DNA of 64,000 nt from a virus. Within the stretch, counting starts at the first letter, position 1. Every line of letters starts with the position of its first letter. A model generated the notes under the pieces. The model was given only the letters and a program-made list of their open reading frames with translations, did no database searches and had not been told where the DNA came from. Shown piece after piece: positions 4,710 through 25,505 of this stretch. The stretch covers positions 32,001 to 96,000 of the IMG/VR virus record IMGVR_UViG_3300045988_171958. The stretch is one strand, 5' to 3'. The position numbers and the translations under genes are program-made.

Positions 4710-4735
4710 CTTTTAATTTTCTATAAGTTTGGAAA

Positions 4736-4763
4736 GTTGGCAATGTACCGGTACATTGCCAAC
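4736..4763 (-). terminator. perfect 28-nt palindrome / hairpin terminator
   Basis: GTTGGCAATGTACC|GGTACATTGCCAAC lies between the stop of 4773-6416 and the start of 4167-4709. Confidence 0.65.
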
Positions 4764-4772
4764 TCTATAGAT

Positions 4773-6416
4773 TTAGAATTTCTTACCTCCTCGTATTGCT
4801 GAATTCCTCATCTGCTCTGCAATCATCTTTTCAGCAAGTTGTAATGCTTCATCATCTTCGGCATTCTCATAAATTCTTGCGCAAGTAATAAATGATCTAC
4901 AACTAACTTCAATAGGTTTTCCTTCTTCAACTAATTTTTCAAGATAATTCATAGCTTTAGCTTTTGATGACATTGAAAGATGATTAGATTCAATATTTGG
5001 CATAATACCACGAATTATTTCAAGCAAATCCTTAGTAGAGAAATCAAGTGATTGTGTAAATGCTCTATTTCGTAATGCTGTATCAATTTGTCCAACACTA
5101 TAGTTTGTAATGACAATCATACCGCATTTATTGTAATGTGATTTAGGGACTGGAACACCTTCATCATCTTTAAGTTCACCGGAAACTTTATATGATACAA
5201 GACGACCTTCATCATCTGCTGTTGAATCAAGGGCCGCCTTAAGAATATTGATACAATCTTCTGGTGCTTTTGGACCTACCAATGAATCAGCATCATCAAC
5301 TAAAACAATATCACCCTTACCTTTATTGTTATAAAGTGTTAAATAAAGCTGTCTAGGTGTACATTTACCTTTTACAGTATTATCGGCAGTCATAGTATAT
5401 CCTGCTGCCTTCAATTGTTGCTTTACACGGAAAGTCTTACCGATACCAGGAGCACCACAAAGAATTACAGCAGGTTGAATTCCTTTAATAACCATCTTTA
5501 TATATAACTGCATTTCCTTAAATGCTGTCTTAGGATCTGACTTAGCAGTTTCAATCTTCTTTTCTGCTTCTGCAGCACCGGCAATAGTAGATGATACTGA
5601 AACATTTTTCTTTACAGAGCATTCAAGATCATCTAAAGATGTTGCACCACCTTTAATAGCATTCAATATCTGACGATATTCTTTATAAAGAGCTTTACCA
5701 AGATCTGGGTCAGTATTTGTTTTCATTTGGGCATATACTTCTTTCTTACGATCTTCAAGTTCTGTTTCATTGATCCACTGATAAGATTCTCCAATCTTCT
5801 TATATTTATGACCAAGATTTAAATGGTACTTTTCAATAACCTTATCTTCAGAAATTCCTTCATAAATATGATATTTCTGGGCACCAAAATACATGTCACA
5901 AGAAATACATTCATTCTTGGTATCATATACTTTACGTCCAAGCTTTACTGCTTCTTCTGATGAAATATCAAACTTACCACTATTTATTACATTTGCAATT
6001 ACTGGAATATAATAAACAATACTAGCACCCATCATTTTGATTTCCAGTTGTGCTTTAATTGGTTTATTGTCATCACCACCAAAAAATAATGAAGCAGTAT
6101 TTGTTTGATTGAAGAAAGCAACTGAATAAGGTACCATAGATTGGCCGCTCTTCAAGAAGTTGATACTGAATGATGATTTTGGAATGCTTCCACCCTTATC
6201 TGATACAATATACATTACAGAGCTGCAATCATTACCATCTACTTTCAAATCAGATACACCTAAAGACCATACATGTCCTATGGTAATTTCTTTCTTCAAT
6301 ATGTTGAGAATTGTCTTCTTTGCTTTATTATAATCTTTCTCTTTAAATGCCTCATTCATCCATTGAGAAGATTCTTCTAATAATGTTTTCTTATTTACAA
6401 AATCTAAAAATGACAT
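4773..6416 (-). CDS. AAA+ ATPase with an unassigned ~300-aa N-terminal domain
   Basis: Walker A is ILCGAPGIGKTF and Walker B is IVLVDDADS. A sensor-like ITNY..ALRNRAF segment follows. Confidence 0.8.
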   Translation of the reverse strand: MSFLDFVNKKTLLEESSQWMNEAFKEKDYNKAKKTILNILKKEITIGHVWSLGVSDLKVDGNDCSSVMYIVSDKGGSIPKSSFSINFLKSGQSMVPYSVAFFNQTNTASLFFGGDDNKPIKAQLEIKMMGASIVYYIPVIANVINSGKFDISSEEAVKLGRKVYDTKNECISCDMYFGAQKYHIYEGISEDKVIEKYHLNLGHKYKKIGESYQWINETELEDRKKEVYAQMKTNTDPDLGKALYKEYRQILNAIKGGATSLDDLECSVKKNVSVSSTIAGAAEAEKKIETAKSDPKTAFKEMQLYIKMVIKGIQPAVILCGAPGIGKTFRVKQQLKAAGYTMTADNTVKGKCTPRQLYLTLYNNKGKGDIVLVDDADSLVGPKAPEDCINILKAALDSTADDEGRLVSYKVSGELKDDEGVPVPKSHYNKCGMIVITNYSVGQIDTALRNRAFTQSLDFSTKDLLEIIRGIMPNIESNHLSMSSKAKAMNYLEKLVEEGKPIEVSCRSFITCARIYENAEDDEALQLAEKMIAEQMRNSAIRGGKKF

Positions 6417-8502: not shown

Positions 8503-10155
8503 TTATAAGAAGAAGAACTGTATTGGTTCTACTTGCTGTTGAGTCATATCATCATAAGTCATAGTACATTTATGGATGATTGGCATTTCTAAATTTGTTT
8601 TAAGTCTTATATTTCCAACTTCATCTAATCCAATCATATCTGACTTATCATATATTGTTCTTATATCAACATAACTTAAATCTTTAGATGATGTAAAATG
8701 AAGTTCCTTCTTATTCCAATAACCCTTGTATCTAGCTATCTCATCTGCTTCTGATATGAAATCTAAATCAAAACTAAGTAATCCTGTGGTATTTTCTATA
8801 ACATACGATATCAATTCAGATTTACTTATAAATAATGTATCAGTAGGTAATGACATGAAGTAATTAGATATTACATTAGTTATGCTATTTTTTATAGAAT
8901 CTTTTATTGTAGATGTCGATAGCTTTATATAACACATGATAGAATATCTTCTTATTATTGGATCTACAAAAGTAAGGGAAGTACCAACAAAAGCCTTATT
9001 TGATTGTTCTAAAGCCTGAATAATCATAGATTTTTGATTATCAGTCAATAACATAGATTCTTTACTTAATTTCAAATAATCACTTGGGGTGGATAAATGA
9101 TCTTTAAATTTAGAAAATGCAATACAAGTTATCTTTGTAGAATTTCTAGATGACATCAAATTGAATTGTCCAACAAATGAAAATCTCTTTAAGAACATTT
9201 TGAAATTGTCTTCACTTGCTAATACTAAAGATCGAGAATTCATACCAACTAATTCTTTTACATTTGCGATAGTATCGGCATCTGTACCTCCACATATATA
9301 GCTTGTTATTGTGATATTTAGCAAATCATTAGCTTCTACTAAATCTCCAATAGAATTTCTTATGGAAGATTTGAATTTTAAAGTAACATCATCTGATGGT
9401 GAAATATTTCCAAGACTTCCATCATGTGATATGTATTTTACAGTTATTTGGTCTCCTTCATTCAAATTGTGACCATGATATCCATTACCAAACATAACAG
9501 AGAAACCTCCATCATATCCATTCTTTACTACACAGCTATGTTCATCTTCTATCATATCATACAAACAACTTGATATTGACCATCTTTCTCCATTCACATA
9601 TACTTTCATGTGATTGATATCATACAAGCTATTTACTTCTGCCTCTATTGTTTCCAATGGTTCTCCTTTAGCTGTAGCTGTTGCTCTTTTCCAAGTACCT
9701 TGTAAAATAGATATGGAATGTGTTACTAATGGCTTGCTCATATCTATTACTATAGAATCAACTGGTAAATCAACTGAATATGTTACACCGGTTGACTCAT
9801 TCATCAACTGACATTCATCTTCTATAACTATCTTATCTGTTGAATTAGATATCTTATTAGAAATAAGCACAGTACCTGAAGCTGAAGCGCCATAATATGC
9901 ATCATATCCGCTTATCTTTGCTAAACTATATATTGATTTCTTTCTAGTAGCAGTAAATATATTCTGTTCTGTCATAGCATCTTCTATGTAGAACATCATA
10001 TTTTGCATGACACCCTTTATTCCTTCTAATACGGATCCAAATATTGATGATTGAGAATATGCTTGTCCTAAACCACCAAATGATTTGTTGAGAAAATCCT
10101 GCATGGTTTCAGAAAAATTCTCATAAGATGTCTTTAATATTTCAAATAGTCTCAT
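8503..10155 (-). CDS. baseplate wedge protein, gp6 / Baseplate_J-like
   Basis: 550-aa ORF that starts immediately after the stop of the gp25-like gene. The size, the synteny (W then J) and the N-terminal region resemble the Baseplate_J family. This is recognition by eye only. Confidence 0.5.
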   Translation of the reverse strand: MRLFEILKTSYENFSETMQDFLNKSFGGLGQAYSQSSIFGSVLEGIKGVMQNMMFYIEDAMTEQNIFTATRKKSIYSLAKISGYDAYYGASASGTVLISNKISNSTDKIVIEDECQLMNESTGVTYSVDLPVDSIVIDMSKPLVTHSISILQGTWKRATATAKGEPLETIEAEVNSLYDINHMKVYVNGERWSISSCLYDMIEDEHSCVVKNGYDGGFSVMFGNGYHGHNLNEGDQITVKYISHDGSLGNISPSDDVTLKFKSSIRNSIGDLVEANDLLNITITSYICGGTDADTIANVKELVGMNSRSLVLASEDNFKMFLKRFSFVGQFNLMSSRNSTKITCIAFSKFKDHLSTPSDYLKLSKESMLLTDNQKSMIIQALEQSNKAFVGTSLTFVDPIIRRYSIMCYIKLSTSTIKDSIKNSITNVISNYFMSLPTDTLFISKSELISYVIENTTGLLSFDLDFISEADEIARYKGYWNKKELHFTSSKDLSYVDIRTIYDKSDMIGLDEVGNIRLKTNLEMPIIHKCTMTYDDMTQQQVEPIQFFFL

Positions 10156-10509
10156 TTATCTGTATTGATATTTCTTTTCTTTAACTAGATTACCAGTATT
10201 TGGTGCTTTTAAACCTATCTTAACCTCATATATGTCTCGCAAAGATCCTTTTATGACGTTTACTTCTATGCTTACATTCAACTTATTGCACCAATAGGTA
10301 TTTTCTATTATCTTTCGTTGTATGTATGATTGTACTTCCATAGGAGATGGAGTCATTTGCCATAAGAACTGTTCCATGTTTACCCCGAATCCTGGGTTTC
10401 CTAAAACTTGAGTACAATTAGTTCCAAGCAACAAATCTAATTCTTGTATGGCAGCATCATAAGGGGATTCTATTACTTTGCTATTATCTAATGCAAGATC
10501 TATTTCCAT
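10156..10509 (-). CDS. baseplate wedge protein, gp25 / GPW-like
   Basis: 117 aa. ..IQELDLLLGTNCTQVLGNPGFGVNMEQFLWQ.. resembles the T4 gp25 core (..TRKGSRPFDPEFGCDLSDQLFE..), and the size is typical of GPW/gp25. Confidence 0.65.
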   Translation of the reverse strand: MEIDLALDNSKVIESPYDAAIQELDLLLGTNCTQVLGNPGFGVNMEQFLWQMTPSPMEVQSYIQRKIIENTYWCNKLNVSIEVNVIKGSLRDIYEVKIGLKAPNTGNLVKEKKYQYR

Positions 10510-10511
10510 TC

Positions 10512-12323
10512 TTATTCTATAGTATAATTTCCAGTAGATATGTATTCATTTTCAGAAGTCAGAATATCATATTTTCCAGTTGCTTCATTTATAAGCTTAG
10601 AATTTATATTGAATATTACAAATGAAGATGTTCTTGAACTTTCATGCCACTTGTTTTCTCCTATTGACAATATGAATTCATCTACTTTGTTTACATAAGA
10701 AGATAATGATATTCCAATGTTTTGTGCCATGTTTGAACGCAATACTATATTCTGCAACTCTTGAACTTTAAAGAATATTGGTTTGTAAATTATTCTTGGT
10801 TGAACAGAATTCTTTTGTATTTGCTGTTTGTCATCATTACTCTTTACTATACGGCAATTCATATTGCTTATGAAGTTGAAATTCTCTTTATTCATATCAT
10901 CAATATCTGTTTCTTTTTTCTTTATAGACAATCTAGTATACTGTTGTTCATTTATTGTATATTTCAATTTGTCTTTGGTAAATAATACAGTAGGAGAAGA
11001 ACAGTTCTTACCAATAGCTCTGTCTTCCATTATGAGTCTTACATAAACATTATCTGGTACTTGTGACCATTTAGAAAATAGGTCTTTCATAGGAAACAAA
11101 AAGTCATCAACCCTATCAGAATATGATATTTCTTCATGTATTATGTTTTTTGACAGATAGTCAGAAGAAACAATACATGTATATTTTACCATTTCTAAGC
11201 TATCACCTAAAATTTCTTTCAAATCTTCATAATCTTTAGCCTTTTCTGATAATAGCTTATATTTAGAAAAATCAGTACTATATATTCTTTGCCAAGCAGA
11301 TTCTATAGAAGAAAATGATTCTGGATAGCAAAATCTACCAACTACTGATATTGTACCATCTATAAATTCAAATGATGCTTTTATTGACATTTTAAAGTCG
11401 TCGACAAAATAACAAGAAGCCGGTTTAGCATATTTGTTTATAGTGAATATTCCATTATCTGATATTGATTTCCATGGATATAAAGTCATGTTTAATGAAA
11501 TCATTTCAGGAATAGAATATGGATTTTCAACGTATTCTTTCATTTCTGTTCCATCATCTTCCTTATGATATTTCCAATAATGCAACAGTAAGTTCATATC
11601 TGCTAATTGTATGCATCCATTTTTTGGATTTTCTAATTCCCTATATACCTGGTAATCCGTATCTTTATGAATGGTTCTATTTAAAGCATTAGTTTCTTCA
11701 GCATATTTTATCTTATCTTGTGAATATTCATTTCTGAATATCAATGATGGTTCTTCTATATATGTAGAACCATATAAAACATCTCTAAAGTCAGGAATTT
11801 CTATTTCAAAATACTCATTGTATATATCCTGATTTAATCGTCTTTCTTTACCAGTATGTTTATCCTCACATTTTATCATATCACAGTACCAATGGATATG
11901 TAAAGAGTTTACCCAGCTATCAACATACAATATCATGTTACGATTCAAATCAGTTGTTGGATGCCATATTCTAAGCTTTATTGTTTTAACATTCTTTATA
12001 TATAGATCTTCATCAAGCAATCTGTTGTATGAATATCCACCCAATGTAGAATCATGTTCTGGAATTGAGTATTCATGTTTAATAGATTCAGAAAATGCAT
12101 CTGAATTTGTTGACATCAACGGAATTCCTGTTGTATTAGTAGATGGCCATATTTTAGGGGTACCCCTATCTATTGGAGCTAAGTATATATCTGTATCTAT
12201 GGTCATATCATTTATGACATCAGTATTTCTGAATGCAACATATTGTTTAGTAGAAATTATATCAGAATCAATCATTTCTACTAAATATTTATCTCCATTT
12301 ATTATGATTGTGTTGCTTTTCAT
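10512..12323 (-). CDS. putative baseplate/tail structural protein
   Basis: 603-aa ORF directly upstream of the gp25-like gene (3-nt gap). Function is inferred from position only. Confidence 0.45.
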   Translation of the reverse strand: MKSNTIIINGDKYLVEMIDSDIISTKQYVAFRNTDVINDMTIDTDIYLAPIDRGTPKIWPSTNTTGIPLMSTNSDAFSESIKHEYSIPEHDSTLGGYSYNRLLDEDLYIKNVKTIKLRIWHPTTDLNRNMILYVDSWVNSLHIHWYCDMIKCEDKHTGKERRLNQDIYNEYFEIEIPDFRDVLYGSTYIEEPSLIFRNEYSQDKIKYAEETNALNRTIHKDTDYQVYRELENPKNGCIQLADMNLLLHYWKYHKEDDGTEMKEYVENPYSIPEMISLNMTLYPWKSISDNGIFTINKYAKPASCYFVDDFKMSIKASFEFIDGTISVVGRFCYPESFSSIESAWQRIYSTDFSKYKLLSEKAKDYEDLKEILGDSLEMVKYTCIVSSDYLSKNIIHEEISYSDRVDDFLFPMKDLFSKWSQVPDNVYVRLIMEDRAIGKNCSSPTVLFTKDKLKYTINEQQYTRLSIKKKETDIDDMNKENFNFISNMNCRIVKSNDDKQQIQKNSVQPRIIYKPIFFKVQELQNIVLRSNMAQNIGISLSSYVNKVDEFILSIGENKWHESSRTSSFVIFNINSKLINEATGKYDILTSENEYISTGNYTIE

Positions 12324-12379: not shown

Positions 12380-12470
12380 TCACCAGGAACAACAAAAAAT
12401 GCTTTAGACATATAATTTATAGTCTAAAGCATTTTCCAATCCCTGACCGCCCCAGGCGCTATTCTAGGGA
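12380..12470 (-). repeat. GC-rich structured element, copy B (minus orientation)
   Basis: The reverse complement reads AGCGCCTGGGGCGGTCAGGGATTGGAAAATGCTTTAGAC..GTCTAAAGCATTTTTTGTTGTTCCTGGTGA, with a 12-bp inner hairpin. It starts 9 nt after the stop of the 12479-14245 gene. Confidence 0.7.
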
Positions 12471-12478
12471 ATCCATGA

Positions 12479-14245
12479 TTATGAATCTATTGATACTACT
12501 AATGGGTCACCAATAGTAGATGGAGCAACAGTTATTTCATCTTCTGGTCTTGGCAATACACCTGAAGAAATGAGTTTTCTAACTAAATGATCTGTCTTTT
12601 CTCCTAAAGCATCTGTATCAATATTCTTTATTCTAAAGAAGTACTTGAAGTGTGAATAGTCAGATAGTTGTACTCCATAAAGATAAGAAGTATCAAACCA
12701 TTTTCCTGCACCCGCATATATACCACAATGATTCAATATAGTAGATTCATTCTTTACACCTATATCACCAGGTTTAAGATCATCAACAGATATTCTTTCC
12801 CAATCATTATCACTGAATAAAGTGAAGAAGTCAACACACATGTTAGGTGTCTTTACATTCAATGCCTTCTTCATTACATATTTGATATATCCAGAACAAT
12901 CCAATCCATATTCTGGTTTGTCTTTACCATGTATCTTATAGAAAAGACCTGGTTGCATAAGTAAGCAGTTGTACATTACTTCTTGTCTCTTACTAGATAT
13001 AAGTGACCAGTCATGTTCCCAAAGTTCAAGAATAGTATTTTTGTCGTATGATGTAAAGCATCTGCCTTTGTCTTGGCCAAATTCAAAATCATCAGTATGG
13101 TAGATAGCATTCTTCTTCATGTATGCTTCTATCTTATCTATCACAATGTCAAACATATTATGCTTGATTTGTTGTGATATTCCTTGAACACCCGGACTTG
13201 AATTATATTCTATTACAAAGTCACCATCAGTACAAGCCATCAAGTCAATACCAACCCATCTGCATCCAGAAAGCTTAGCAACCTTCAATGCAATTTCTTT
13301 TTGCTTGTCTGTCATCTGGTATTCTTCTGTCTTAGCTCCTAATGAGACATTGCTTCTGAAGTCGCCACTTATCTTATCACGTTTCATACAAGCAAGTATC
13401 TCATAATTAGCACCATCAACGGAAAATGCATGTACACGAATGTCACCAGTATTCTCTTTATATTCTTGTATGATGAATTCTGCTTCTTTATCCACAGCAA
13501 ACATAGCTTGCAGTATTCCTTCTATTTCATCATGATTGCAGATGAATACACCAATACCAAGACTACCATTCAGTATCTTTACTACGTATTGTCTGTTTTC
13601 TTTCAGTTCATTTATGTTCTCATTATCTTTATAGATAGAATCAAGCATCTTCCAGAAACTTTCTCTAGTATCGTGGCATTCTGTATTCAAGTCCTCCATC
13701 AATTCTCTTGTTATCAGTACATATCCTGGCTGTGGAATATTTTCTTTAGCCAATAAGTTAGATGCAAGATACTTGTCAGATGCCATGATGATTTCATCTA
13801 TAGTATTCAGCATGAAGAAACCTTCATATTCAAATGCCCTCATCAACCCAATATAGTTTTTCTTATTGTCATCATTAGCTTGACCTTGGAATATGATAGT
13901 ATCATGAATGTTAGAATGTTTCAATGAGAAATGCATGTCTGTTATATCATCATCTATAGATATGATATGATTAGAATAAGTAAATCGTACTGTTGCTTTG
14001 TTCAACCATACAAGATTCAGCTTTCTCTTATGACAGCAAATAGTCAAATAATCTTGATAAGACCAATCTTCTTCTTTTTCTTCTGCCGCTTCATCGTAAC
14101 TCTTTACTTTCTTTTCTCCAACATAGAAGCATATTACATTCTTTATTTCTAACTTGGTATCATTTTTCAGAAGCGTCATTGCTTCATTTATGTTTGCATG
14201 CCCTATGTTCTTATATTCTTTTTCCATTTTATTTACAAAGTTCAT
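12479..14245 (-). CDS. RimK-like ATP-grasp ligase fused to a C-terminal NlpC/P60 peptidase domain
   Basis: ATP-grasp motifs: VVKILNGSLGIGVF, GDIRVHAF, RSNVSLGAKTEEY and WVGIDLM..EYNSSPGVQG. NlpC/P60 motifs: GLDCSGYIKYV (catalytic Cys) and LNHCGIYAGAGKWFDTS (His). Confidence 0.75.
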   Translation of the reverse strand: MNFVNKMEKEYKNIGHANINEAMTLLKNDTKLEIKNVICFYVGEKKVKSYDEAAEEKEEDWSYQDYLTICCHKRKLNLVWLNKATVRFTYSNHIISIDDDITDMHFSLKHSNIHDTIIFQGQANDDNKKNYIGLMRAFEYEGFFMLNTIDEIIMASDKYLASNLLAKENIPQPGYVLITRELMEDLNTECHDTRESFWKMLDSIYKDNENINELKENRQYVVKILNGSLGIGVFICNHDEIEGILQAMFAVDKEAEFIIQEYKENTGDIRVHAFSVDGANYEILACMKRDKISGDFRSNVSLGAKTEEYQMTDKQKEIALKVAKLSGCRWVGIDLMACTDGDFVIEYNSSPGVQGISQQIKHNMFDIVIDKIEAYMKKNAIYHTDDFEFGQDKGRCFTSYDKNTILELWEHDWSLISSKRQEVMYNCLLMQPGLFYKIHGKDKPEYGLDCSGYIKYVMKKALNVKTPNMCVDFFTLFSDNDWERISVDDLKPGDIGVKNESTILNHCGIYAGAGKWFDTSYLYGVQLSDYSHFKYFFRIKNIDTDALGEKTDHLVRKLISSGVLPRPEDEITVAPSTIGDPLVVSIDS

Positions 14246-15293
14246 TTATAGCTTCTACTAACTTTTCAAAGAACTTACAATTAGTTTCTTCTATGTTAGG
14301 GTCATTGATAGGAGAGCTCGGTCCAGGTGCACCATTCAATTCTACTACTATAGTGTTTCCATTCTGTAATGGTAGCATGTCAACACCACACCATTCAAGA
14401 CCAGATGCTTTAGCAGCTGCTAAAGCCAGCTTTTCTTGTTCAGAAGTCATCTTGTAGTCATCTTCCATGTCACAACCAAGACTGAGATTAGTTCTGAAGT
14501 CTTTACCTTTCTTTCTCATGATAGAAGACAATATCTTTTGCTTACCATTCAATGTAAGTACATGAGCTCTGATATCACCATCTTTTATATCTTGAAAGTC
14601 TTGTATGAGTATTGGACAGTTTTCCTTCAATTTGAACAAACATTGCAATATAGATACAATGTTTTTGCCACGACAGCAAAACACACCTTTGCCACCATGT
14701 CCATTCAGAATCTTACAAACATATTTTAATCCATCATCAAGCTTACCATAGAGTTGCTTTAGCTTTTCATCTAGCTTCTTATGATCTTCTTTATCTATAT
14801 CACCAGAAGTTGCAAGTACATATTTTGGTTGTGGAAGTTCTGCTTTTGTCAAGAAACATGCAGTTGCATATTTATCAGATGACATAGCTACTGCTTCTGG
14901 ATTGTTCAATATCAGTATATCTAATTCTTGTATAGCATCAAGTAAAGCTGATATCACTTCCTTAGTATATCCACTACGCATCAATACTACTGTGTTCTTA
15001 GAATCTGCTTTAGTAAGTACTACATCTGGCAAGTCTTTCTCTCCACTATATATGTGTACTTTATCATCTTTGAAAGAAAAGTTGAGCTTGGTAGGATCTG
15101 CATATTCTACTTTTATCTTATCTCTCTTAAGCATCTTTACAGAATTCAAGTAAAGTTCACCTATCAATATTATTCTTTCTACTTTCTTAAGCTTAGTATG
15201 ATTTTCTACTTTACTGTTACTGTTTTTTTCTACTATATATTCTATAGATTTCAGTTCAGTAATGTAGTTTGTTCCATTGTACTTCATTTTCAA
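14229..15293 (-). CDS. RimK-like ATP-grasp ligase (paralogue of the previous gene, without a peptidase domain)
   Basis: VCKILNGHGGKGVF, GDIRAHVL, FRTNLSLGCDMEDY and WCGVDMLP..VVELNGAPG align with the neighbour. There is a 17-nt overlap with the downstream gene. Confidence 0.75.
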   Translation of the reverse strand: MKMKYNGTNYITELKSIEYIVEKNSNSKVENHTKLKKVERIILIGELYLNSVKMLKRDKIKVEYADPTKLNFSFKDDKVHIYSGEKDLPDVVLTKADSKNTVVLMRSGYTKEVISALLDAIQELDILILNNPEAVAMSSDKYATACFLTKAELPQPKYVLATSGDIDKEDHKKLDEKLKQLYGKLDDGLKYVCKILNGHGGKGVFCCRGKNIVSILQCLFKLKENCPILIQDFQDIKDGDIRAHVLTLNGKQKILSSIMRKKGKDFRTNLSLGCDMEDDYKMTSEQEKLALAAAKASGLEWCGVDMLPLQNGNTIVVELNGAPGPSSPINDPNIEETNCKFFEKLVEAINELCK

Positions 15294-15324
15294 ATTGAAT
15301 AAATCTTATATATGTAAAAATACT

Positions 15325-15355
15325 TTTGAAAAGTTTATGCACACTTTACTATATT
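15325..15355 (+). promoter_or_regulatory. promoter (TTTGAAAA-N12-TTTACTATATT variant)
   Basis: Lies in the divergent region between 15293 and 15382. It is the same variant as the element at 16505-16535. Confidence 0.45.
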
Positions 15356-15381
15356 GTAAATATGTTAACTATGTTATAAAT

Positions 15382-15675: not shown

Positions 15676-15699
15676 AATTTTCTATAAAGATTCTATATT
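15672..15699 (+). promoter_or_regulatory. promoter (TTGAAAT-N12-TTCTATATT)
   Basis: Consensus match, followed by TATTATGTA as in the other copies. Confidence 0.55.
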
Positions 15700-16576: not shown

Positions 16577-17722
16577 ATGAGTTGGAAACCTAATTTTGAT
16601 TACAGCAACAAGAACATGAACTTTTATAAAGTTGGTTGTAATTTCGATCCTAAATTGATTGATGTTGCTGTAGAGTTGAATAAGAAATATAAGGGTAAGT
16701 CACAGATTGTAGAATTTTTTGGATCTGATGCAAGTAATGAAGTAGTAACTGCAAGACCAGGTTGGAGATTGCCAGATATTGATAAAGAATTCTTTGCAAA
16801 TTATGTAAAGAAGTTGAAGGATAACAATATCGCATTCAACTATACAATGAATTCAATTCAGCCTTATGGTTCAAAAATGGAAATGCTGAATCATAAGAAA
16901 GATATTCAGGATCTTGTAAAATGGCTAGAAAATATTGGTGTAGCACGTATTACTGTGGCAAACCCAATGATGTTACTTTTTATTAGAGAAGTATCAAATA
17001 TTGAAATTGAGATGTCATGTATTTCTCATATTGATACTGTGACTCAGTTGAAGTATTATCATGAAACATTTGGAGTAAATAAGTTCTGTAATTCAATTCT
17101 TAAGAATCGTAATAAGCATTTCTTAATTAATGCACAGAAGTATTGTGATGAAAATGGTTGCATATTAGAATGTATGGCAAATGAATTTTGTGGAGTAGCT
17201 GGTGTTGATGGAAATGGTACTCATTATGCCACACATTGTGTATTTAGAGATTCTTGCTATCTCTGTCATGCAACAAACAAGACAAAAGAGGATAGTATGT
17301 CTTACAATAATTATCCAATGGGATATTGTATGTCAGCACGTTCATCAACTCCAGAAGCTTGGCTTCGTATGAGATTCATTAGACCAGAGGATCAAAAAAT
17401 TTATCGTGAAAATACTGGTGTAAATTATTTTAAACTTTCTGGTAGAACTGGTACCACAGATTATCTTGAATACATTATGAATGCATATATGTCAGAAAAC
17501 TATGATGGTAATCTTCTTGGTTTGTGGAAACCTCTTTCATCAATTTATGATGGAAAAACAGAATTGAAATCTAAAACAGATATTGATATTCCAAATAAGA
17601 AGCTTGATGGATTCATCAATAAGTGGATGGATGGAAATGGATGGGAATGTGCTGACCAGATGTGTGGTACAACCTGTGATTATTGTGCAAAATTTGCTAA
17701 AGAACATAACTTATATGACTAA
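16577..17722 (+). CDS. peptidase-U32-family protein (RlhA/TrhP/UbiU-type putative hydroxylase)
   Basis: TIM-barrel-like N-terminal half (..VARITVANPMMLLFIREV..IEMSCISHIDT..), a Cys-rich block (ECMANEFCGV..THCVFRDSCYLCH) and ..VNYFKLSGRTGTTDYLEYIMNAY (compare the KIEGR block of E. coli YhbU). Family recognised by eye. Confidence 0.6.
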   Translation: MSWKPNFDYSNKNMNFYKVGCNFDPKLIDVAVELNKKYKGKSQIVEFFGSDASNEVVTARPGWRLPDIDKEFFANYVKKLKDNNIAFNYTMNSIQPYGSKMEMLNHKKDIQDLVKWLENIGVARITVANPMMLLFIREVSNIEIEMSCISHIDTVTQLKYYHETFGVNKFCNSILKNRNKHFLINAQKYCDENGCILECMANEFCGVAGVDGNGTHYATHCVFRDSCYLCHATNKTKEDSMSYNNYPMGYCMSARSSTPEAWLRMRFIRPEDQKIYRENTGVNYFKLSGRTGTTDYLEYIMNAYMSENYDGNLLGLWKPLSSIYDGKTELKSKTDIDIPNKKLDGFINKWMDGNGWECADQMCGTTCDYCAKFAKEHNLYD

Positions 17723-18038
17723 TATAACTAACTCTGATTTGAAACTTCTCAAATCATGCAGAGCAGAAATTACAAGAGGTGACCGGTCATTGGTCAACCT
17801 CTTGATTTCTAGAATGAATAATGCTATATTGATAGGAAGAATCAAGAAGAAAGCAGATGAACCTATTGTACAACCAGACAGATGGAATCATGTAATGAAA
17901 AATGTGCATAAGCAATTAGAAGGTTCAAGACTTAGTACTGAATATAAAGAAGAATTTGACTATCTTATTGATAGTATATTCAATATTATTCATGAAGTAT
18001 CATGTAAATTGCAAGAAAAGGATCATGACAATAGATAA
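17715..18038 (+). CDS. AroQ-class (type II) chorismate mutase
   Basis: LKSCRAEITRGDRSLVNLLISRMNNAILIGRIKKKADEPIVQPDRW aligns with the PheA CM domain ([30 protein letters not shown]..DIDRE), conserving the Arg11, Arg28, Lys39 and Arg51 equivalents; the Glu52 equivalent is Trp. The ATG overlaps the U32 stop region. Confidence 0.6.
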   Translation: MTNITNSDLKLLKSCRAEITRGDRSLVNLLISRMNNAILIGRIKKKADEPIVQPDRWNHVMKNVHKQLEGSRLSTEYKEEFDYLIDSIFNIIHEVSCKLQEKDHDNR

Positions 18039-19137
18039 GAAATTTGTAGACGACCACATGCAAGATAAGAATATCTTGTACATACCTATTATCTCTTCTA
18101 TAAATAGAGAGACAAACAAGTATAATTTGGATAGTGATGGAAATGTAGTACGTTTTATTACATTTTTTGAACATCATAAGAATTTCAATACTTTGACAAT
18201 ATTGCTTCCAAAGAATAATGAATCACATGATATCATTGACAGGTGGGTAAAAGACAATGATAATATTGAAATCATTTGGTCAGATAATTTTGGTAAGCAT
18301 GCTGGTGAACAAAGAAGTGATTCTGATGTTGTGAGTAAGATGGAGATGGAATTGTTTGAACTTATAAATAATCCAGATAATGATAATGATTTCAATATTG
18401 TAATGTTTGAAAGTCAATTTTTAGGAAATTTATTGGTTGACCCATATTGGTTTAAAGGATTTGAAAAGGTTTTCTGGTGTCCAGTTTGTAAGATTGATAA
18501 TGAGCATACAAGAAATTTCTTAGAGGGATATGATAATTTGAATAAGAAATTGTTTCAACTTTCGGATTGGTCAATTGTAGAAAGTCCAACACAACTCAAG
18601 AAATTCTCTTTACCAGAATGTTCAATATACCCTTATTATATGATGATGGATCGCAATCTGAAATATTTTGATTATATGACAGATTTTGGATTGAAAGATA
18701 CTATTAAAACAGTTAAGAATCTTGATACAGGTACTTATTCTATTTATTATATTCCTTATAGATTGACTGATGAAGGATATAAAGTAGATGATGTTATTTC
18801 ATATATTAATTATGACTATGCTGATGTGGTTGTTGTGTATTATACAGATCCAAACAATAGTGGAGCAATGGAAGATTTGAAGAAAAAATTCAATTCAAAT
18901 GTTGTTTTCATCAAATTATCAACAGATAGAAATACACATTTTACCATGTTGTCATCAGAAGATGTTGTTGTACCATACTTTGAAGATTTAGATTTCATCA
19001 ATCATGCAACTTTATGGGAAATGATGTCATCAAAATCAAGATGTCAATTTGGAATAACTAAGGAACAATATGATATGAATTCATATAATATGAAATCTTG
19101 TGATAGATGTTTCTATATTGATTTAAAGAATTTATAA
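18025..19137 (+). CDS. hypothetical protein (possible glycosyltransferase-like alpha/beta protein)
   Basis: 370-aa ORF from the internal ATG, overlapping the chorismate mutase stop by 14 nt (translational coupling). No motif recognised; the suggested function comes from context only. Confidence 0.35.
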   Translation: MTIDKKFVDDHMQDKNILYIPIISSINRETNKYNLDSDGNVVRFITFFEHHKNFNTLTILLPKNNESHDIIDRWVKDNDNIEIIWSDNFGKHAGEQRSDSDVVSKMEMELFELINNPDNDNDFNIVMFESQFLGNLLVDPYWFKGFEKVFWCPVCKIDNEHTRNFLEGYDNLNKKLFQLSDWSIVESPTQLKKFSLPECSIYPYYMMMDRNLKYFDYMTDFGLKDTIKTVKNLDTGTYSIYYIPYRLTDEGYKVDDVISYINYDYADVVVVYYTDPNNSGAMEDLKKKFNSNVVFIKLSTDRNTHFTMLSSEDVVVPYFEDLDFINHATLWEMMSSKSRCQFGITKEQYDMNSYNMKSCDRCFYIDLKNL

Positions 19138-19147
19138 ATGAAATAAA

Positions 19148-20371
19148 ATGAATCATGATAGTATTTTATTAAAAATCTTTTTTAATAAAGAGAATAAGAT
19201 AATTGGAGGAAAAGTAGCAAGGATAAAAAGAATATTCCCAAACATATTGTCTTATTTAAATAAAAGATATCCTGATTCATTTTCTTTAAAAGAAACTCTA
19301 ATTAGGATGAAATATCATATTGATGTTCATCCAAAATGCCCGGTTTGTGGAAATTTTACAAAGTTTTATGGGTTTAAAAATTTGATGTTTGCAAATCATT
19401 GTTCTAACAAATGTACTCAATTAGATAGTGAAACTAAAATAAAATTTAAACAAACTTGCTTTAAAAAATATGGGGTTGATGCTCCAATGAAATCTTCTAA
19501 AATAAAAGAAAAATCTAAACAAGTTTGTTTAGAAAAATATGGTGTGGAAAATATATCACAATTTTTTGAAACTAAAGAAAAATATAAACAAACTTGTTTA
19601 GAAAAATATAATGTTGATAATCCATTTAAATTAGAAAAAACGAAAATAAATTCACATTCAAAAGAAGCTAAAGAAAAGCAAAGAAAAACTTGTTTAGAAA
19701 AGTATGGAGTAGAAAATTCATTCCAATCAAAAGAAGTTAGACAAAAATATAAAGAAAATTATAAAAGAAAATATGGAGTAGAAAATCCATTTCAAAACGA
19801 AATAATAAAAGAAAAGATAAAACAAACTTGTTTAGAAAAATATGGTGTTGATAGAGCAATTAAAAGTGATTTGGTAAAAGAAAAATGTAAACAAACTTGC
19901 TTGGAAAAATATGGAAGTAGTTCACCAATGAAAAACCCATATATTGTAAATAAATCTATAAATAAGAGAATTCAAAACAATACTTGGTCTACTTCAAAAC
20001 CAGAAGAAGAATTGTATCTTTATATAAAAGAAAGATTTCCATCTGTAAAAAGACAGTATAAAGATAAAGAAAGATACCCATATTTTTGTGATTTCTACAT
20101 TCCTGAATTAGATTTGTTTTTAGAATTGAATGGGACTTGGACACATGGAAACCATCCTTATGATATGAATTCTAAAGAAGACAATTCTATATTAAATATA
20201 TGGAAAGAAAAATCTAAAGAACATCCTATGTATTTAAGTGCAATAAAAACATGGGTTGTAAGTGATGTAAATAAGAGAAATAAAGCAAAAGAAAATCATT
20301 TAAATTTTAAAGAAGTTTGGAATTTAGATGAAGGAAAAGAATTTATAAATAAATTAACTAGAAGAGAATAA
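19148..20371 (+). CDS. homing-endonuclease-like protein: Zn-ribbon, eight CLEKYGV repeats and a C-terminal PD-(D/E)XK (Vsr/DUF559-like) domain
   Basis: CPVCGN..HCSNKC at the N-terminus, then 8 copies of K-x-T-C-L-E-K-Y-G-V-x-N. The C-terminus ..YPYFCDFYIPELDLFLELNGTWTHG resembles the D..(E/D)xK nuclease core. Confidence 0.5.
   Translation: MNHDSILLKIFFNKENKIIGGKVARIKRIFPNILSYLNKRYPDSFSLKETLIRMKYHIDVHPKCPVCGNFTKFYGFKNLMFANHCSNKCTQLDSETKIKFKQTCFKKYGVDAPMKSSKIKEKSKQVCLEKYGVENISQFFETKEKYKQTCLEKYNVDNPFKLEKTKINSHSKEAKEKQRKTCLEKYGVENSFQSKEVRQKYKENYKRKYGVENPFQNEIIKEKIKQTCLEKYGVDRAIKSDLVKEKCKQTCLEKYGSSSPMKNPYIVNKSINKRIQNNTWSTSKPEEELYLYIKERFPSVKRQYKDKERYPYFCDFYIPELDLFLELNGTWTHGNHPYDMNSKEDNSILNIWKEKSKEHPMYLSAIKTWVVSDVNKRNKAKENHLNFKEVWNLDEGKEFINKLTRRE
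19441..19930 (+). repeat. in-frame tandem repeats (~90-99 nt units) encoding the CLEKYGV motif
   Basis: AAACAAACTTGTTTAGAAAAATATGGTGT-like strings recur about eight times at ~30-aa spacing. Confidence 0.7.
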
Positions 20372-20373
20372 AG

Positions 20374-21846
20374 ATGAATGTGATATTAGTAAGTGGTGGA
20401 TTACAGACTAGATTTAATGAACTTTCTTGTTTTCCTAAGATATTGTTGCCATCAAAAGATGGAACACCAATTTTGATTAAGCAATTAGATTATTTTGATG
20501 AAGCAAATACAGTAAGTATCGTTGTAAATCAAAAATTTGCAAAGATCATGAAAGCTTATATTGAAATCAATCATCTTAATGTTGATGTGATTGTATCTGA
20601 TAATACTAATGGTTCAGGCAATACTTTAGCTTCTGTATATGATTGGCTTCCAAAAAAGAATGTTTTGTTTTTCTGGTCAGATATTTTGTTTGATAATGAT
20701 GAATTCAAATTGGATAGAAAAATTGAAGATAAAGACAATTGTGTGATTTTTACTGTAAATGATGCAAAATATCGATATAAGATAGAAGATGGTAAGATTG
20801 TAAACAGATCATTTGCTTATGATGGAAATATCCCAGGTATCTTTTGGATCAAAGATATTTCAGAGGTTATTCCAACTAAACCATGTGATGAAAATAAAGA
20901 TTTGATTGATATCATTCAAGAAAAAGTGAATGATGGTATGATTACTTTTGTTGAGTCAAATATCAATACAAAGATTACTGAATATAAGTCATTATCAGAA
21001 TATAAGAAGATTATGTCAACTTCTTATCAGAAAGATTTAGTTTTACCTACTGATATGGAAGTTTCGTATACTGATAAAGAATCCATGCAATATGTAGCAA
21101 AAACAAATGAGCATTTGAATTATCAATATGACTGGATTTCTTTTTTATCTTATAATCCTGGAATTAGTGATTATGTTGTAGATATGCCAGTAAGTAAGAC
21201 AGAAGACGGATACGTTTGTGATATGCACAATCTTGAAGGATATACACATGCATCAAAGGTAAATCTTACTAATCTTTTAAACAATTTTGTAAGATATAAA
21301 GTAGATGTACCATTGTCAACATCTGTAAAATTTTTGTTAGAAGAATATAATGGTAAACCACTGAAGGGGATTTGTGATACATGCAGACTTTTTGAAAATA
21401 ACAGAACATTTGCAGAAGTTCAAACACTTATAGATAATGCATGTAATCTTCTTATAGATGGTTTAGCGAATGATGAATGGGTATTAACTCATGGAAACAT
21501 CAATTCTCATAATGTTCTTGTAAATATGACTGGTGATATCAAATTGTATAATCCAGTATCAAGAAGAAATGGATCTTTTTTCTGCCATCCAATTGTCGAC
21601 CAATCAGAAGCTTATATGGTAGAGATTGGATTAGATGAAGCTTTGAGAAAGGAAATGACATATAAAGTAGATGAACTTCCAAAGATAGAAGATTGTGATG
21701 TGTTTATTGAAACTGCTATCTATCTTCATTTACTTGGTATGCTTCCAATGTTTGCAAAAGATATTATGAAATTGAATATTGTATTGGAGTATGCTATTTC
21801 AGGATTGTCTAACATAATTAATGAATGTATTGATGGAAACAAGTAA
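20374..21846 (+). CDS. bifunctional sugar-phosphate nucleotidyltransferase / APH-like kinase
   Basis: N-terminal MNVILVSGGLQTRF..PKILLP matches the (L)AGGxGTRL..PK signature. C-terminal LTHGNINSHNVLVNMTGDIKLYNP matches the HxDxxxxN-type kinase loop. Confidence 0.65.
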   Translation: MNVILVSGGLQTRFNELSCFPKILLPSKDGTPILIKQLDYFDEANTVSIVVNQKFAKIMKAYIEINHLNVDVIVSDNTNGSGNTLASVYDWLPKKNVLFFWSDILFDNDEFKLDRKIEDKDNCVIFTVNDAKYRYKIEDGKIVNRSFAYDGNIPGIFWIKDISEVIPTKPCDENKDLIDIIQEKVNDGMITFVESNINTKITEYKSLSEYKKIMSTSYQKDLVLPTDMEVSYTDKESMQYVAKTNEHLNYQYDWISFLSYNPGISDYVVDMPVSKTEDGYVCDMHNLEGYTHASKVNLTNLLNNFVRYKVDVPLSTSVKFLLEEYNGKPLKGICDTCRLFENNRTFAEVQTLIDNACNLLIDGLANDEWVLTHGNINSHNVLVNMTGDIKLYNPVSRRNGSFFCHPIVDQSEAYMVEIGLDEALRKEMTYKVDELPKIEDCDVFIETAIYLHLLGMLPMFAKDIMKLNIVLEYAISGLSNIINECIDGNK

Positions 21847-21931
21847 GTTTAAGACATCAAGAAGAGTATTGAGAGAAGGTTTGACTTGGGCTGATTATTT
21901 TAAGTCCAAGCATACCTTAGAATATATCAAT

Positions 21932-22414
21932 ATGAAGAAAATCATAATTTCTGACTGTGATGGTATCTTGACTGATGGAAATATGACTTATGATGACAAC
22001 AGAAAACGATTTAAAACCTATGGTTGCCATGATAAGGAATTATTCAATATTGCTAAAGACCTTGGATGGGAATTCTTATTTGTAACAGATGATAGGACTG
22101 GATGTGATATTACAGACAGAAGAATAAGTAATTCTTTCATGTTACATGTTACAGAAGCTGATCCAAATGAAAGAGAAAAATTAGTTAAGAAATATAGGGA
22201 TAATGGATACATTGTTGCTTTTATTGGAGATAGTCCAAGTGATGTATCAGCTGCTGTAGCGGCAAATATATGTGCTACTACAGATAATTGCTTTGAATAT
22301 ATAAAACCATTTTTTCATTATGTTTCTAAATATCAAGGTGGACACGGAGGATTTGCTGATATATTATATCAACTAATGCTAATGGATAAAGATGATCTTG
22401 AAATCTATAAGTAA
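21932..22414 (+). CDS. HAD-IIIA phosphatase, KdsC-like
   Basis: MKKIIISDCDGILTDG matches the KdsC DxDGVLTDG motif I, and FIGDSPSDVSA matches motif IV (GDxxxD). The internal ATG was chosen because it sits 6 aa before motif I, as in KdsC. Confidence 0.7.
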   Translation: MKKIIISDCDGILTDGNMTYDDNRKRFKTYGCHDKELFNIAKDLGWEFLFVTDDRTGCDITDRRISNSFMLHVTEADPNEREKLVKKYRDNGYIVAFIGDSPSDVSAAVAANICATTDNCFEYIKPFFHYVSKYQGGHGGFADILYQLMLMDKDDLEIYK

Positions 22415-22425
22415 ATCATAAAATC

Positions 22426-22468
22426 AATACTGTATTTTTAATTTAGAAATAAATTTAAATACAGTATT
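22426..22468 (+). terminator. 12-bp hairpin directly before the next ATG
   Basis: AATACTGTATTT (22426-22437) / AAATACAGTATT (22457-22468), followed by TT and the ATG at 22471. Confidence 0.5.
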
Positions 22469-22470
22469 TT

Positions 22471-23700
22471 ATGATTAAACATATAGAAGAACCTAGTGGA
22501 AAGGGAAGAATAGCATGCATATCTTTACCAGTAAGACATATACTAGTGAATAGAGACAATATCACCATGTATAATGTATATCATTATTGGAAGTATTTGA
22601 CAGAATTTTTGAAATATGATAAAGTATATATATTGACAACATCGTTGTCTAATTCTGGTGAAAAATATAATAACATATTGAAAGATTGCCCATTGATATA
22701 TGGAATTGAAAAGAAAGACTTGTTATTAGATTATCATATAAATGACATGTGGATTGTTCCAGCTCAGACAAATATATTTGGTGGAATGGCTATTATGACC
22801 TTTCCATTTTGTATGAATAGAATATATGAATGGTGGAAATCAAAATCTGCATCAGATAAGATGATATTCATTAATGATGATCCAGAAGTATGTAAGCTTT
22901 GGTTTTTCCGATATCATACTAATCGTTATGCTATTAAGAAAGATGCAAGGATAGTGTGGAAACAAGGAATAAATCAAGATAATTGGAATACAGAAATTGA
23001 TTTGTTAGAATCAAGATATGATGATATATGCAATATGGAAAATGATTTTGATTTGGCATTTTGTGGATTAGATTATGATAAATATGTTAAAGAGTATGGG
23101 ATAAAGGTCTTGCCAAAATCTTGGTTTAATTTCAATGTTTACTATTACATTACATTAAATGATGATTTAGATTTGAGAATGAGAAATTATGACTTTAATG
23201 ATAAGAAATATTCTGCTTGCTATTATGGATATATTAAAGATTTAGATAGAATAGCTAGAACAGAAGAATTTTACAGTAAAGTTGATAAGCCATTTTTAGT
23301 AATTAAAGGAGGTAGTAAGAATTTCTTTAAACATGTAGATTTTGACCATGATATAGATCTTGTAAAAAATATGCCTTATTCAGATTTGCTAAAATTTGTT
23401 CCATCAAATGCTAAGTCTTCATTAATAACACATAACAAATGTATATTGGGTAATCAAGTATCACCAAGATGGTTTGATTTGATGCTTATGGATATTGTAT
23501 GTTTTGTTGACGAAGCTTTTGATCCAAACCATGAATTGTGTGATGATTGGCTTTATGAACATACATATTGTAAGAATGGACAAGATTATGCAGACAAGCT
23601 TAAGAAAATAGAAAACAACGAACCATTATATAGAGAGATTGTTCAAAGACAACGTAAGTTTGTATTTGAAAAGTATGAAAAATATCTCCCGAAATTCTAA
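22471..23700 (+). CDS. T4 beta-glucosyltransferase-like DNA glycosyltransferase (putative)
   Basis: ..SSLITHNKCILGNQVSPRWFDLMLMDIVCFVDEAFDPNHEL.. resembles, from memory, T4 BGT ..ALIIGDKNYNDNFITLRVWETMASDAVMLIDEEFDTKHRI... The preceding YSACYYGYIKD..R segment resembles VIYGGSFRSGQR. Confidence 0.5.
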   Translation: MIKHIEEPSGKGRIACISLPVRHILVNRDNITMYNVYHYWKYLTEFLKYDKVYILTTSLSNSGEKYNNILKDCPLIYGIEKKDLLLDYHINDMWIVPAQTNIFGGMAIMTFPFCMNRIYEWWKSKSASDKMIFINDDPEVCKLWFFRYHTNRYAIKKDARIVWKQGINQDNWNTEIDLLESRYDDICNMENDFDLAFCGLDYDKYVKEYGIKVLPKSWFNFNVYYYITLNDDLDLRMRNYDFNDKKYSACYYGYIKDLDRIARTEEFYSKVDKPFLVIKGGSKNFFKHVDFDHDIDLVKNMPYSDLLKFVPSNAKSSLITHNKCILGNQVSPRWFDLMLMDIVCFVDEAFDPNHELCDDWLYEHTYCKNGQDYADKLKKIENNEPLYREIVQRQRKFVFEKYEKYLPKF

Positions 23701-23823
23701 TTTATATATAAAGTATATTAAATTGATTAATATGAAATGGGTAGAAAATAAAACACAGATTCCTATTTATGGATATCAAATATCTACAGATGGTAAGAAG
23801 TATATTTATGTTTGTAAATAAAA

Positions 23824-25009: not shown

Positions 25010-25015
25010 AAAATA

Positions 25016-25044
25016 TTTGAAATATTCTTGAATAATTCTATATT
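25016..25044 (+). promoter_or_regulatory. promoter (TTTGAAAT-N12-TTCTATATT)
   Basis: Exact consensus, followed by ATATATGTT. Confidence 0.6.
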
Positions 25045-25081
25045 ATATATGTTAATTTTAATTATTTAATTTAATTTAATT

Positions 25082-25450: not shown

Positions 25451-25505
25451 GTTCTGCCATTTCTAATTGATGTTTAATAATTTAAAAAGTAAAATTAAAA
25501 GAAAA

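Follow-up and report, generated by a model that had tools for sequence, protein, structure and literature searches.

Tandem RimK-like ligases and a fused NlpC/P60 peptidase in an uncultured jumbo phage: a possible variant of the RimK/RimB system

RimB belongs to the retropepsin-like aspartic endopeptidases and removes glutamate from ribosomal protein S6 polyglutamylated by RimK; it also stimulates the synthesis of poly-alpha-glutamate by RimK, and natural RimBK fusions occur, especially in the Flavobacteriales and Rhodobacterales (PMC11957791). We describe here a cassette of related type in 64,000 nucleotides of viral DNA (positions 32,001 to 96,000 of the IMG/VR record IMGVR_UViG_3300045988_171958; this whole stretch is referred to below as the window), in which one gene encodes a stand-alone RimK-like ATP-grasp ligase (grasp1, or G1) and the next encodes a second such ligase (grasp2, or G2) fused to an NlpC/P60 peptidase domain. 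As in the RimABK system of Pseudomonas and the RimBK hybrids of Desulfotalea, Flavobacteriales and Rhodobacterales, a RimK-type ligase is paired or fused with a dedicated peptidase, but the window differs from these systems in having an NlpC/P60 domain instead of a retropepsin and in having a duplicated ligase. It differs from RimABK, moreover, in that a RimA-like gene is absent and in that both ligases score below the cutoffs of the rimK_fam and S6-ligase models. Phage relatives with a single copy of the ligase carry the same two folds as RimK-RimB, that is, RimK and a DUF785/RimB retropepsin with a D-T-G motif, although their order of ligase followed by protease is the reverse of that in bacterial RimBK. 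In the clade to which the window belongs, the retropepsin appears to have been swapped at the same place for the non-homologous NlpC/P60 peptidase.

Both genes of the cassette lie on the minus strand. The G1 open reading frame (ORF; 14229..15293) specifies 354 aa as listed and has no C-terminal peptidase domain, and the fusion ORF (12479..14245) specifies 588 aa, of which approximately residues 25–380 (13106..14173) make up the N-domain and ATP-grasp module of G2, as delimited by Pfam, a structural model and invariant motifs. A reading of this DNA made from the sequence alone (the sequence-only reading) had claimed two RimK-like ATP-grasp ORFs, and this was borne out: the Pfam RimK model (PF08443) matches G1 at 7.3e-21 and the fusion protein at 1.8e-31, both ligases pass its gathering threshold of 21 bits (scores of 109.6 for the higher and 75.1 for the lower), and among the PHROGs both proteins fall into phrog_2599, ‘ribosomal protein S6 glutaminyl transferase’. 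G1 and G2 share 33 % identity over 276 residues (E 2e-36) and, judged by their sequences, are paralogues. The listed start of G1 is the TTG at 15293, but the true start is probably an in-frame ATG two codons further in, at 15287. The same reading gave an overlap of 17 nt between the two genes, which holds for the listed starts but becomes a spacer of 1 nt after the G1 stop codon if the second in-frame ATG of the fusion ORF, at 14227, is used. The junction in relatives has either a spacer of 1–2 nt or an overlap of 4–17 nt, so that the tight coupling of G1 and G2 is conserved whichever start is used; the two genes are translationally coupled and form a two-gene cassette.

The catalytic motifs of G2 comprise K223, the G227–V233 loop, G267-D268-x-R270, D295-F-R-S-N299, D334 and E346-x-N348, among which the set that binds ATP and Mg2+ (K223, D268/R270, R297/N299, D334 and E346/N348, the aspartate and the E-x-N motif being the Mg ligands) is present. 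The listed residues are invariant in alignments of between 39 and 73 fusion-protein sequences, and the ATP-grasp signatures are all invariant in the 73 full-length fusion proteins, the identity of which to the window protein falls as low as 48 %. For G1, the residues K193, GDIR, DFRTN, GVD and E318-x-N320 are kept in 12 orthologues with identity down to 33 %. Both ligases are predicted to be catalytically intact, neither being a pseudoenzyme, and the ATP-grasp and NlpC/P60 motifs quoted in the sequence-only reading are all present and invariant across the relatives.

With regard to family, the best NCBIfam model for both proteins is rimK_fam (TIGR00768), to which G2 scores 121.0 bits and G1 102.7, and the second best is MptN; GSH-S_ATP and glutathione synthase models match as well, more weakly. 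Of the two ligases, the one submitted to structure modelling was G2, within the fusion protein, for which the AlphaFold2 (AF2) model had a predicted local distance difference test score (pLDDT) of 83 and a predicted template modelling score (pTM) of 0.82. The model shows the three-domain ATP-grasp fold, and a Foldseek search with it placed the RimK structures 5zct, 7qys and 7qyr at the top (target TM 0.82–0.85), followed by ArgX and LysX (0.76–0.80), and sequence searches of the PDB gave the same order as the structure for both paralogues, the best matches of G1 being Pseudomonas RimK (7qys and 7qyr). ArgX and LysX, as the second-closest structures, provide a comparison in which the ligase targets the C-terminal glutamate of a small protein, LysW; the phage system differs in that no LysW-like carrier adjoins the cassette and in that the score with the LysX equivalog model, about 62 bits, is far from its cutoff of 275.6, and LysX and ArgX for their part lack a peptidase partner. 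We regard G1 and G2 as divergent members of the RimK superfamily by sequence, and because no curated cutoff is reached, substrate specificity is not transferable to them from the characterized members.

The NlpC/P60 cysteine peptidase domain occupies residues 396–545 of the fusion protein (12611..13060, minus strand). Its presence on the downstream ORF, as the sequence-only reading had it, is confirmed by a match of residues 436–531 to Pfam NLPC_P60 (PF00877; 1e-8, 35.5 bits against a cutoff of 23 bits) and by a catalytic triad, Cys450, His506 and Asp518 (minus-strand codons at 12896-12898, 12728-12730 and 12692-12694, respectively), that is conserved in all of the 73 family members. The cysteine and histidine are each found in 73 of 73, while position 518 holds an acidic residue throughout (Glu in 56, Asp in 17) and, when the domain profile is compared with the PDB, aligns with the third catalytic residue of MepS, His131. 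The domain shares its fold and a Cys-His-polar triad with MepS/Spr, CwlT, CwlO and LytE (MEROPS family C40), but it differs from MepS-type enzymes in that the third residue of the triad is Glu or Asp rather than His, and in being fused to a cytoplasmic ATP-dependent ligase. The peptidase is predicted to be catalytically intact. Beyond it lies a variable C-terminal tail of low confidence (residues 546–588 and the stop codon, 12479..12610, minus strand), which is poorly conserved, has a pLDDT below 50 for residues 570–588 and is missing in relatives of 520 aa. When the domain was searched against a database of 5.8 billion proteins, members of its own family were recovered at 1e-24 or below and the next matches, generic wall hydrolases in which PG_binding_1 or LysM is frequent, at 1e-15 or above; no other RimK-NlpC/P60 architecture was found outside the family in that search, and a fold search of the viral structures in BFVD likewise did not return the same two-domain architecture (query-normalized TM of 0.36 or less). 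At one locus (L092) the NlpC/P60 domain is a separate gene of 124 aa, with the order G1, G2, NlpC retained.

The relatives that have only one ligase gene provide the principal evidence as to what this domain replaces. The window proteins were mapped onto 91 loci (designated by L numbers) that extend 10 kb either side of homologues, and most of the related jumbo phages among them (L019-L052) have one RimK-like gene of 500–600 aa, the product of which ends in a domain, about 140 aa long, where the motifs K-x-D-T-G-N-G-A and N-R-D never vary. In a comparison of its profile with the PDB, this domain had a single match, 2PMA (DUF785/PF05618), which was collinear over the whole domain and included both motifs. 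An AF2 model of the domain (pLDDT 81.5) retrieved from Foldseek 2PMA and two retropepsin-like peptidases of Pseudomonas, RloA and RloA2, followed by HIV-1 protease, and retropepsins accounted for all of the top 50 matches. Pfam scanning of single sequences at threshold did not detect the domain in the single-copy relatives; with E-values of up to 10 allowed, only marginal matches appeared (Zn_protease, 0.072; gag-asp_proteas, 0.044), and the PF05618 sequence threshold was not reached. From the model and the profile together, the C-terminal domain of the single-copy relatives is predicted to have a retropepsin fold of the RimB/DUF785 type.

A hidden Markov model (HMM) built for the retropepsin domain matches the C terminus of every single-copy protein examined and of phage proteins of 460 aa from environmental sequences (L053-L066), and also matches YerA41_066 (2.9e-8, motif F-D-T-G-N-S), but none of the ORFs of the NlpC-bearing loci or of the whole 64-kb window is matched by it; with the NlpC HMM, the pattern across the loci is the other way round. 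The gene for YerA41_066 (L003, 7824-9245) is annotated as encoding a ‘structural protein’ with similarity to eukaryotic glutathione synthetase, and the product is actually a RimK-like ligase that ends in a D-T-G retropepsin domain. It is 25–28 % identical to the window protein, as are the RimK-like proteins of cyanophages and pelagiphages annotated as ‘ribosomal protein S6 glutaminyl transferase’; those from cyanophages and pelagiphages (316–355 aa) consist of the ligase only, and none of these homologues, that of YerA41 included, has an NlpC/P60 domain or a tandem paralogue. Both the NlpC/P60 and the retropepsin domain begin about 40 residues past the N-S-S-P-G motif of the ligase and so occupy the same junction. 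In a neighbour-joining tree, G1, G2, a third ATP-grasp module (G3) found in some cassettes and the single-copy form make up one clade against marine phage outgroups. The most parsimonious history would be one in which the ancestor was a ligase-retropepsin hybrid, since the distant L053-L066 proteins and YerA41 also carry the retropepsin, and in which the ligase was then duplicated, G1 lost the protease and the protease of G2 was displaced. The displaced position of G2 is taken by NlpC/P60 in about 70 protein clusters and by the third ATP-grasp module in about 28 clusters of about 700 aa. The ligases and the C40 peptidase are held together under purifying selection, and the exchange of one peptidase for another with the linkage kept provides independent evidence for a common product on which both ligase and peptidase work.

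Our working hypothesis, to which we give somewhat more credence than to its negation, is that the cassette is a phage writer–trimmer module of the RimK/RimB type with a non-homologous enzyme in place of the trimming protease. G1 and G2 would use ATP in the cytoplasm to activate the carboxylate of an acceptor as an acyl-phosphate and would add amino acids singly; if they resemble RimK, ArgX and LysX in this, they would accept the C-terminal glutamate of a protein or peptide and attach L-glutamate to it. The paralogues may share this work, one starting the tail and one extending it, or may form a hetero-oligomer. The Cys-His-Glu/Asp peptidase would then hydrolyse bonds inside the added tail and in doing so would limit its length, or would free the poly-amino acid and sustain turnover by the ligase, in the manner of RimB with RimK. 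NlpC/P60 enzymes typically cut at glutamyl residues (gamma-D-Glu bonds in muropeptides), and PgdS/YwtD, a poly-gamma-glutamate hydrolase, shows that C40 enzymes can hydrolyse polyglutamate, which makes the role of a de-glutamylase chemically plausible. The default candidate for the acceptor, by precedent, would be host ribosomal protein S6, with translational reprogramming as the outcome, and a phage protein would be the alternative. That peptide tails are written and trimmed had been proposed in the sequence-only reading, which named S6, virion proteins and peptidoglycan stem peptides among the possible substrates, and the position of the NlpC/P60 domain, which is that of the RimB-like protease in the single-copy relatives, lends the write-and-trim proposal genuine support from comparison.

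Several observations weigh against this hypothesis. Both ligases lie below the rimK_fam cutoff of 143.4 bits and fall far short of the equivalog cutoffs for S6 ligase, MptN, CofF, LysX and GshB, the model for S6–L-glutamate ligase (NF007764) giving 76.3 and 39.4 bits against a cutoff of 331. No candidate acceptor with an acidic C terminus or a run of poly-Glu was found among the ORFs of the window. In a sister clade (L008 and L018), the third ATP-grasp module stands at the junction and there is no peptidase within 10 kb, so that a trimmer is not obligatory; the survey of homologues covered 10 kb on each side rather than whole genomes, and the neighbour-joining tree from which the history of duplication is drawn is a crude one. 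Finally, the closest kin of the NlpC/P60 domain outside its own family are peptidoglycan peptidases, with MepS/Spr first in the comparison of the domain profile with the PDB (2.5e-11), followed by CwlT-like proteins of the Tn916 type, CwlO and LytE, and there is a weak match to phrog_329, ‘minor tail protein’ (4.6e-10).

These last similarities, together with the PG_binding_1 and LysM domains of several of the next nearest hydrolases, are also what would be expected if the NlpC/P60 domain were a peptidoglycan hydrolase, serving as an entry lysin or endolysin module independently of the ligases, or if the whole protein were an ejected effector that cuts the wall and then modifies host proteins. 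We think such a role unlikely. It is in keeping with it that the fusion gene directly precedes the baseplate block in the window clade, and the sequence-only reading described the cassette as embedded in that block and the fusion as a possible tail lysin. The minus-strand order is indeed G1, G2-NlpC and then genes for proteins of 603, 117, 550, 305 and 299 aa and for an AAA-type protein, and the cassette is the first minus-strand unit, at the 5' edge of the baseplate block and at a divergent junction, on the other side of which a plus-strand block starts at 15277. The genes for the 603-aa protein, the 117-aa protein and the 550-aa baseplate wedge (gp6/J-like) occupy 8503..12323 on the minus strand and form a context block outside the module. 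The 550-aa protein matches phrog_219, baseplate wedge (1.4e-23), and tblastn relates it distantly to gp17 of Sphingomonas phage PAU, the baseplate wedge of Tenacibaculum phage pT24, the Lak megaphages and the LR7565xx megaphages; the 603-aa protein has no tblastn match in phages and no match in Pfam, PHROG or NCBIfam, and we infer from its position that it is a hub or spike.

The ties of the cassette to this block are, however, loose. The fusion gene is separated from the 603-aa gene by an intrinsic terminator (12385..12445, minus strand), a hairpin of 16–20 bp followed by UUUUUUGUUGUU, with a folding free energy of −24.8 kcal/mol and a z-score of −7.5, as stable a fold being reached by none of 200 shuffled sequences. 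It is kept in L004, L012, L013 and L015, with a compensatory change of a U-A to a C-G pair, and is absent in L010, L007 and L009. Because the hairpin is conserved with a compensatory base-pair change, there is good evidence for a predicted working terminator at this point. A generic consensus scan missed this AT-rich terminator and gave 29 promoter-like sites where 26.6 were expected, which is uninformative. Just upstream of the terminator we noted a G+C-rich stretch, AGCGCCTGGGGCGGTCAGGG, that is unusual for a genome of 30 % G+C. The block of genes for hub, W, J and AAA proteins is conserved through the lineage and recurs in L007-L028, and across the loci the ATP-grasp gene or genes stand at a variable distance, 0 to 8 kb, upstream of it, or downstream of it in L018, L023 and L027, or divergent from it in L008. 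In L007 and L009, cassette and block are parted by further genes, not all of them on the same strand, and even in L012, which is 98 % identical, an insertion of 1.5 kb parts the two. The cassette stands at the edge of the block, so that ‘embedded’ goes too far; with a terminator between them and with no fixed spacing or side it is better described as a separate unit loosely near the baseplate region than as a baseplate component.

The promoter-like motif TTGAAAT-N14-17-TTCTATATW, also written TTGAAAT-N14-17-TTCTATATT(T/A)AT, recurs in plus-strand intergenic regions, among others at 15691, 25036, 27217, 29797, 31033, 40703, 48635 and 52046. Its TTCTATATW part has 19 matches where 6.9 are expected, a number reached in none of 100 shuffles; all but 3 of them, 16 in number, have the plus-strand orientation. 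The motif marks the plus-strand block of replication and metabolism genes and is absent 5' of the cassette and of the baseplate genes and from the minus-strand structural block; in the divergent intergenic region 5' of G1 (15294..15380) it does not occur on the strand of G1. Because the motif is lacking upstream of the cassette, there is a slight indication that the cassette may belong to a different temporal class from the plus-strand block. Another motif, TATTTTTAC, shared by the regions 5' of G1 and of the 603-aa gene, was considered as a promoter and rejected, being unenriched (5 occurrences against 2.3 expected).

Other data also bear on a role in lysis. At L011 a single-copy ligase gene is followed by a gene for a PG_binding_1 and lysozyme protein, and YerA41_066, which is expressed in the middle phase, was detected by LC-MS/MS (liquid chromatography with tandem mass spectrometry) in particle preparations (PMC7354516). 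The particle proteome of YerA41 is, however, unspecific, since it also contains ribonucleotide reductase (RNR), dUTPase and terminase. A signal peptide, a lipobox and a wall-binding domain are all missing from the fusion protein, its ligase needs cytoplasmic ATP, and the window has a separate gene for a phage lysozyme (33658-34446, plus strand; 5.4e-15), a candidate endolysin. The gap in score between members of the family and generic wall hydrolases, the arrival of the NlpC/P60 domain at the very junction of the RimB-like protease, the conserved terminator and the loss of baseplate adjacency in L007, L008, L009 and L018 likewise argue against a wall hydrolase, and the tail lysin tied to the baseplate, as first suggested, was not upheld.

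A second alternative to a writer–trimmer of protein tails is a pathway for a small molecule or a cell-wall precursor, in which a metabolite or a UDP-MurNAc-peptide would serve two or three ligases as the base for assembling a short non-ribosomal peptide or peptide conjugate, which the peptidase would then break down by hydrolysis or recycle; we consider this rather improbable. The architectural precedent is glutathionylspermidine synthetase/amidase (GspSA), with trypanothione synthetase-amidase, in which an ATP-grasp-type synthetase is joined to a papain-like Cys-His amidase (CHAP, of the NlpC/P60 clan) of opposing chemistry. GspSA differs in combining GSP_synth with CHAP rather than RimK with NlpC/P60, in its reversed domain order and in its small-molecule substrate, and since neither GSP_synth nor CHAP is among the reported Pfam matches of either window protein, the resemblance is an architectural analogy only. 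The presence of two or three distinct ATP-grasp modules in each cassette does suggest sequential ligation steps. The weaker matches to GSH-S_ATP and glutathione synthase models point in the same direction, as does the fact that some members of the RimK family, such as MptN and CofF, act on cofactors, MptN being the runner-up among the NCBIfam models; so too does the usual preference of NlpC/P60 enzymes for muropeptide bonds, mentioned above. Set against these points, both sequence and structure are closest to the protein-modifying enzymes RimK, ArgX and LysX, and genes for the supply of precursors are not consistently linked to the cassette. The ancestral partner, furthermore, was RimB-like, and the substrates of RimB are protein tails and poly-Glu (PMC11957791).

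We know of no RimK-family enzyme that acts on nucleic acid. A role for the ligases in the hypermodification of nucleotides or DNA, for example by joining amino acids to a modified base, was rejected as the principal explanation and is very improbable, for although the cassette lies 1–5 kb from genes of thymidylate-synthase-like, deoxynucleoside monophosphate (dNMP)-kinase-like, NTP_transf_3, HAD and DNA methylase type in L007, L009, L008 and L011, faces U32-like, chorismate mutase, glycosyltransferase-like and kinase-like genes in the window, and adjoins genes for RNR and dUTPase in YerA41, whose thymidine is hypermodified, such neighbours sit on the opposite strand and are not the same from clade to clade, a retropepsin or NlpC/P60 partner would make no sense for a DNA substrate, and the modification in YerA41 is reported to be oligosaccharide-like (PMC9023294).

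In the sister clades (L007, 6665-8215; L009, 4387-8865; L011, 5767-7843; L008, 16681-18747) the clusters that face the cassette contain thymidylate-synthase-like, kinase-like (Thymidylate_kin and APH), NTP_transf_3, HAD, ribulose-phosphate-epimerase and DNA methylase domains, and L007 has in addition a gene with a DNMK domain on the other side of the cassette; this content suggests DNA base modification in the phages concerned. In the window, a U32-peptidase-like gene (Pfam 5.8e-6; phrog_5757 5e-115) immediately followed by a gene for a type II chorismate mutase (CM_2, 8e-14) lies at 16577-18038 on the plus strand, and the corresponding cluster of L010, a relative at 72 % identity, contains a fusion of 3-deoxy-D-arabino-heptulosonate 7-phosphate (DAHP) synthase and chorismate mutase (4305-5462). 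U32-family enzymes (RlhA, TrhP and UbiU/V) are prephenate-dependent hydroxylases. The U32 and chorismate mutase genes may form a phage module that produces prephenate and adds a hydroxyl group to a quinone or to a base of a nucleic acid. The plus-strand region downstream of them (17956-26639), with genes for a 393-aa protein, a DUF7487 protein, a HAD hydrolase, and glycosyltransferase-like, kinase-like and OmpA-domain proteins, may be a modification or sugar cluster. Elsewhere in the window are a gene for a gp32-like single-strand DNA-binding protein (31126-32232, plus strand) and a giant ORF of 2625 aa (55150-63027, minus strand). At other loci, a gene for a transporter of the major facilitator superfamily (MFS; L092, 8266-9468, minus strand) is found on a contig of 13 kb, at 0.9 kb from the cassette with split G1, G2 and NlpC genes, and on a megaphage contig of 417 kb (L008, 12094-21194) the cassette with three ATP-grasp modules is followed by many DUF285 (BspA-like repeat) genes.

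As to the phage itself, the window has about 30 % G+C and a megablast search of the region against 50,697 phage records gave no nucleotide match. The close relatives, at 96–98 % protein identity, are on metagenomic contigs of 194–288 kb, and because of the size of these contigs the phage can be identified as a jumbo phage; it is an uncultured one, from gut or rumen. Copies at 97 % identity occur in GTDB metagenome-assembled genomes (MAGs) labelled Romboutsia (L094 and L095, ‘uncultured Romboutsia sp.’), and more distant copies in MAGs labelled Erysipelotrichaceae, Clostridia and Parabacteroides. Jumbo-phage contigs of up to 410 kb are found inside bins labelled Romboutsia, Erysipelotrichaceae and Firmicutes (L094, L095 and L096-L099). 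Assignment of a host from these labels was rejected as unreliable, phage contigs being binned by composition, and the labels are probably an artefact.

It is only recently that RimK and RimB have been shown to tune ribosomes by writing and trimming the poly-Glu tails of S6. In the literature we found no description of a RimK-NlpC/P60 fusion or of RimK-retropepsin hybrids in phages, and no report of a RimK-type system functioning in a phage. Fusions of a RimK-like ligase with a RimB-like retropepsin are widespread in phages. The cassette offers a testable hypothesis on phage control of host translation or of protein tails, and if the hypothesis is true, the substrate range of NlpC/P60 enzymes extends beyond cell walls. 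YerA41, a cultured phage with a host, is a relative in which the function of phage RimK could be tested. It is tempting to go further and to speculate, as a possibility that we hold to be on balance doubtful, that many phages, among them the animal-gut jumbo phages and YerA41, rewrite the C-terminal tail of S6 or of another protein by a RimK/RimB-like machine, and that the window clade does so with two specialized ligases, one to start the tail and one to extend it, and an NlpC/P60 de-glutamylase. If this were so, it would amount to a phage counterpart of the TTLL/CCP tubulin code and would be a previously unrecognized route of translational takeover.

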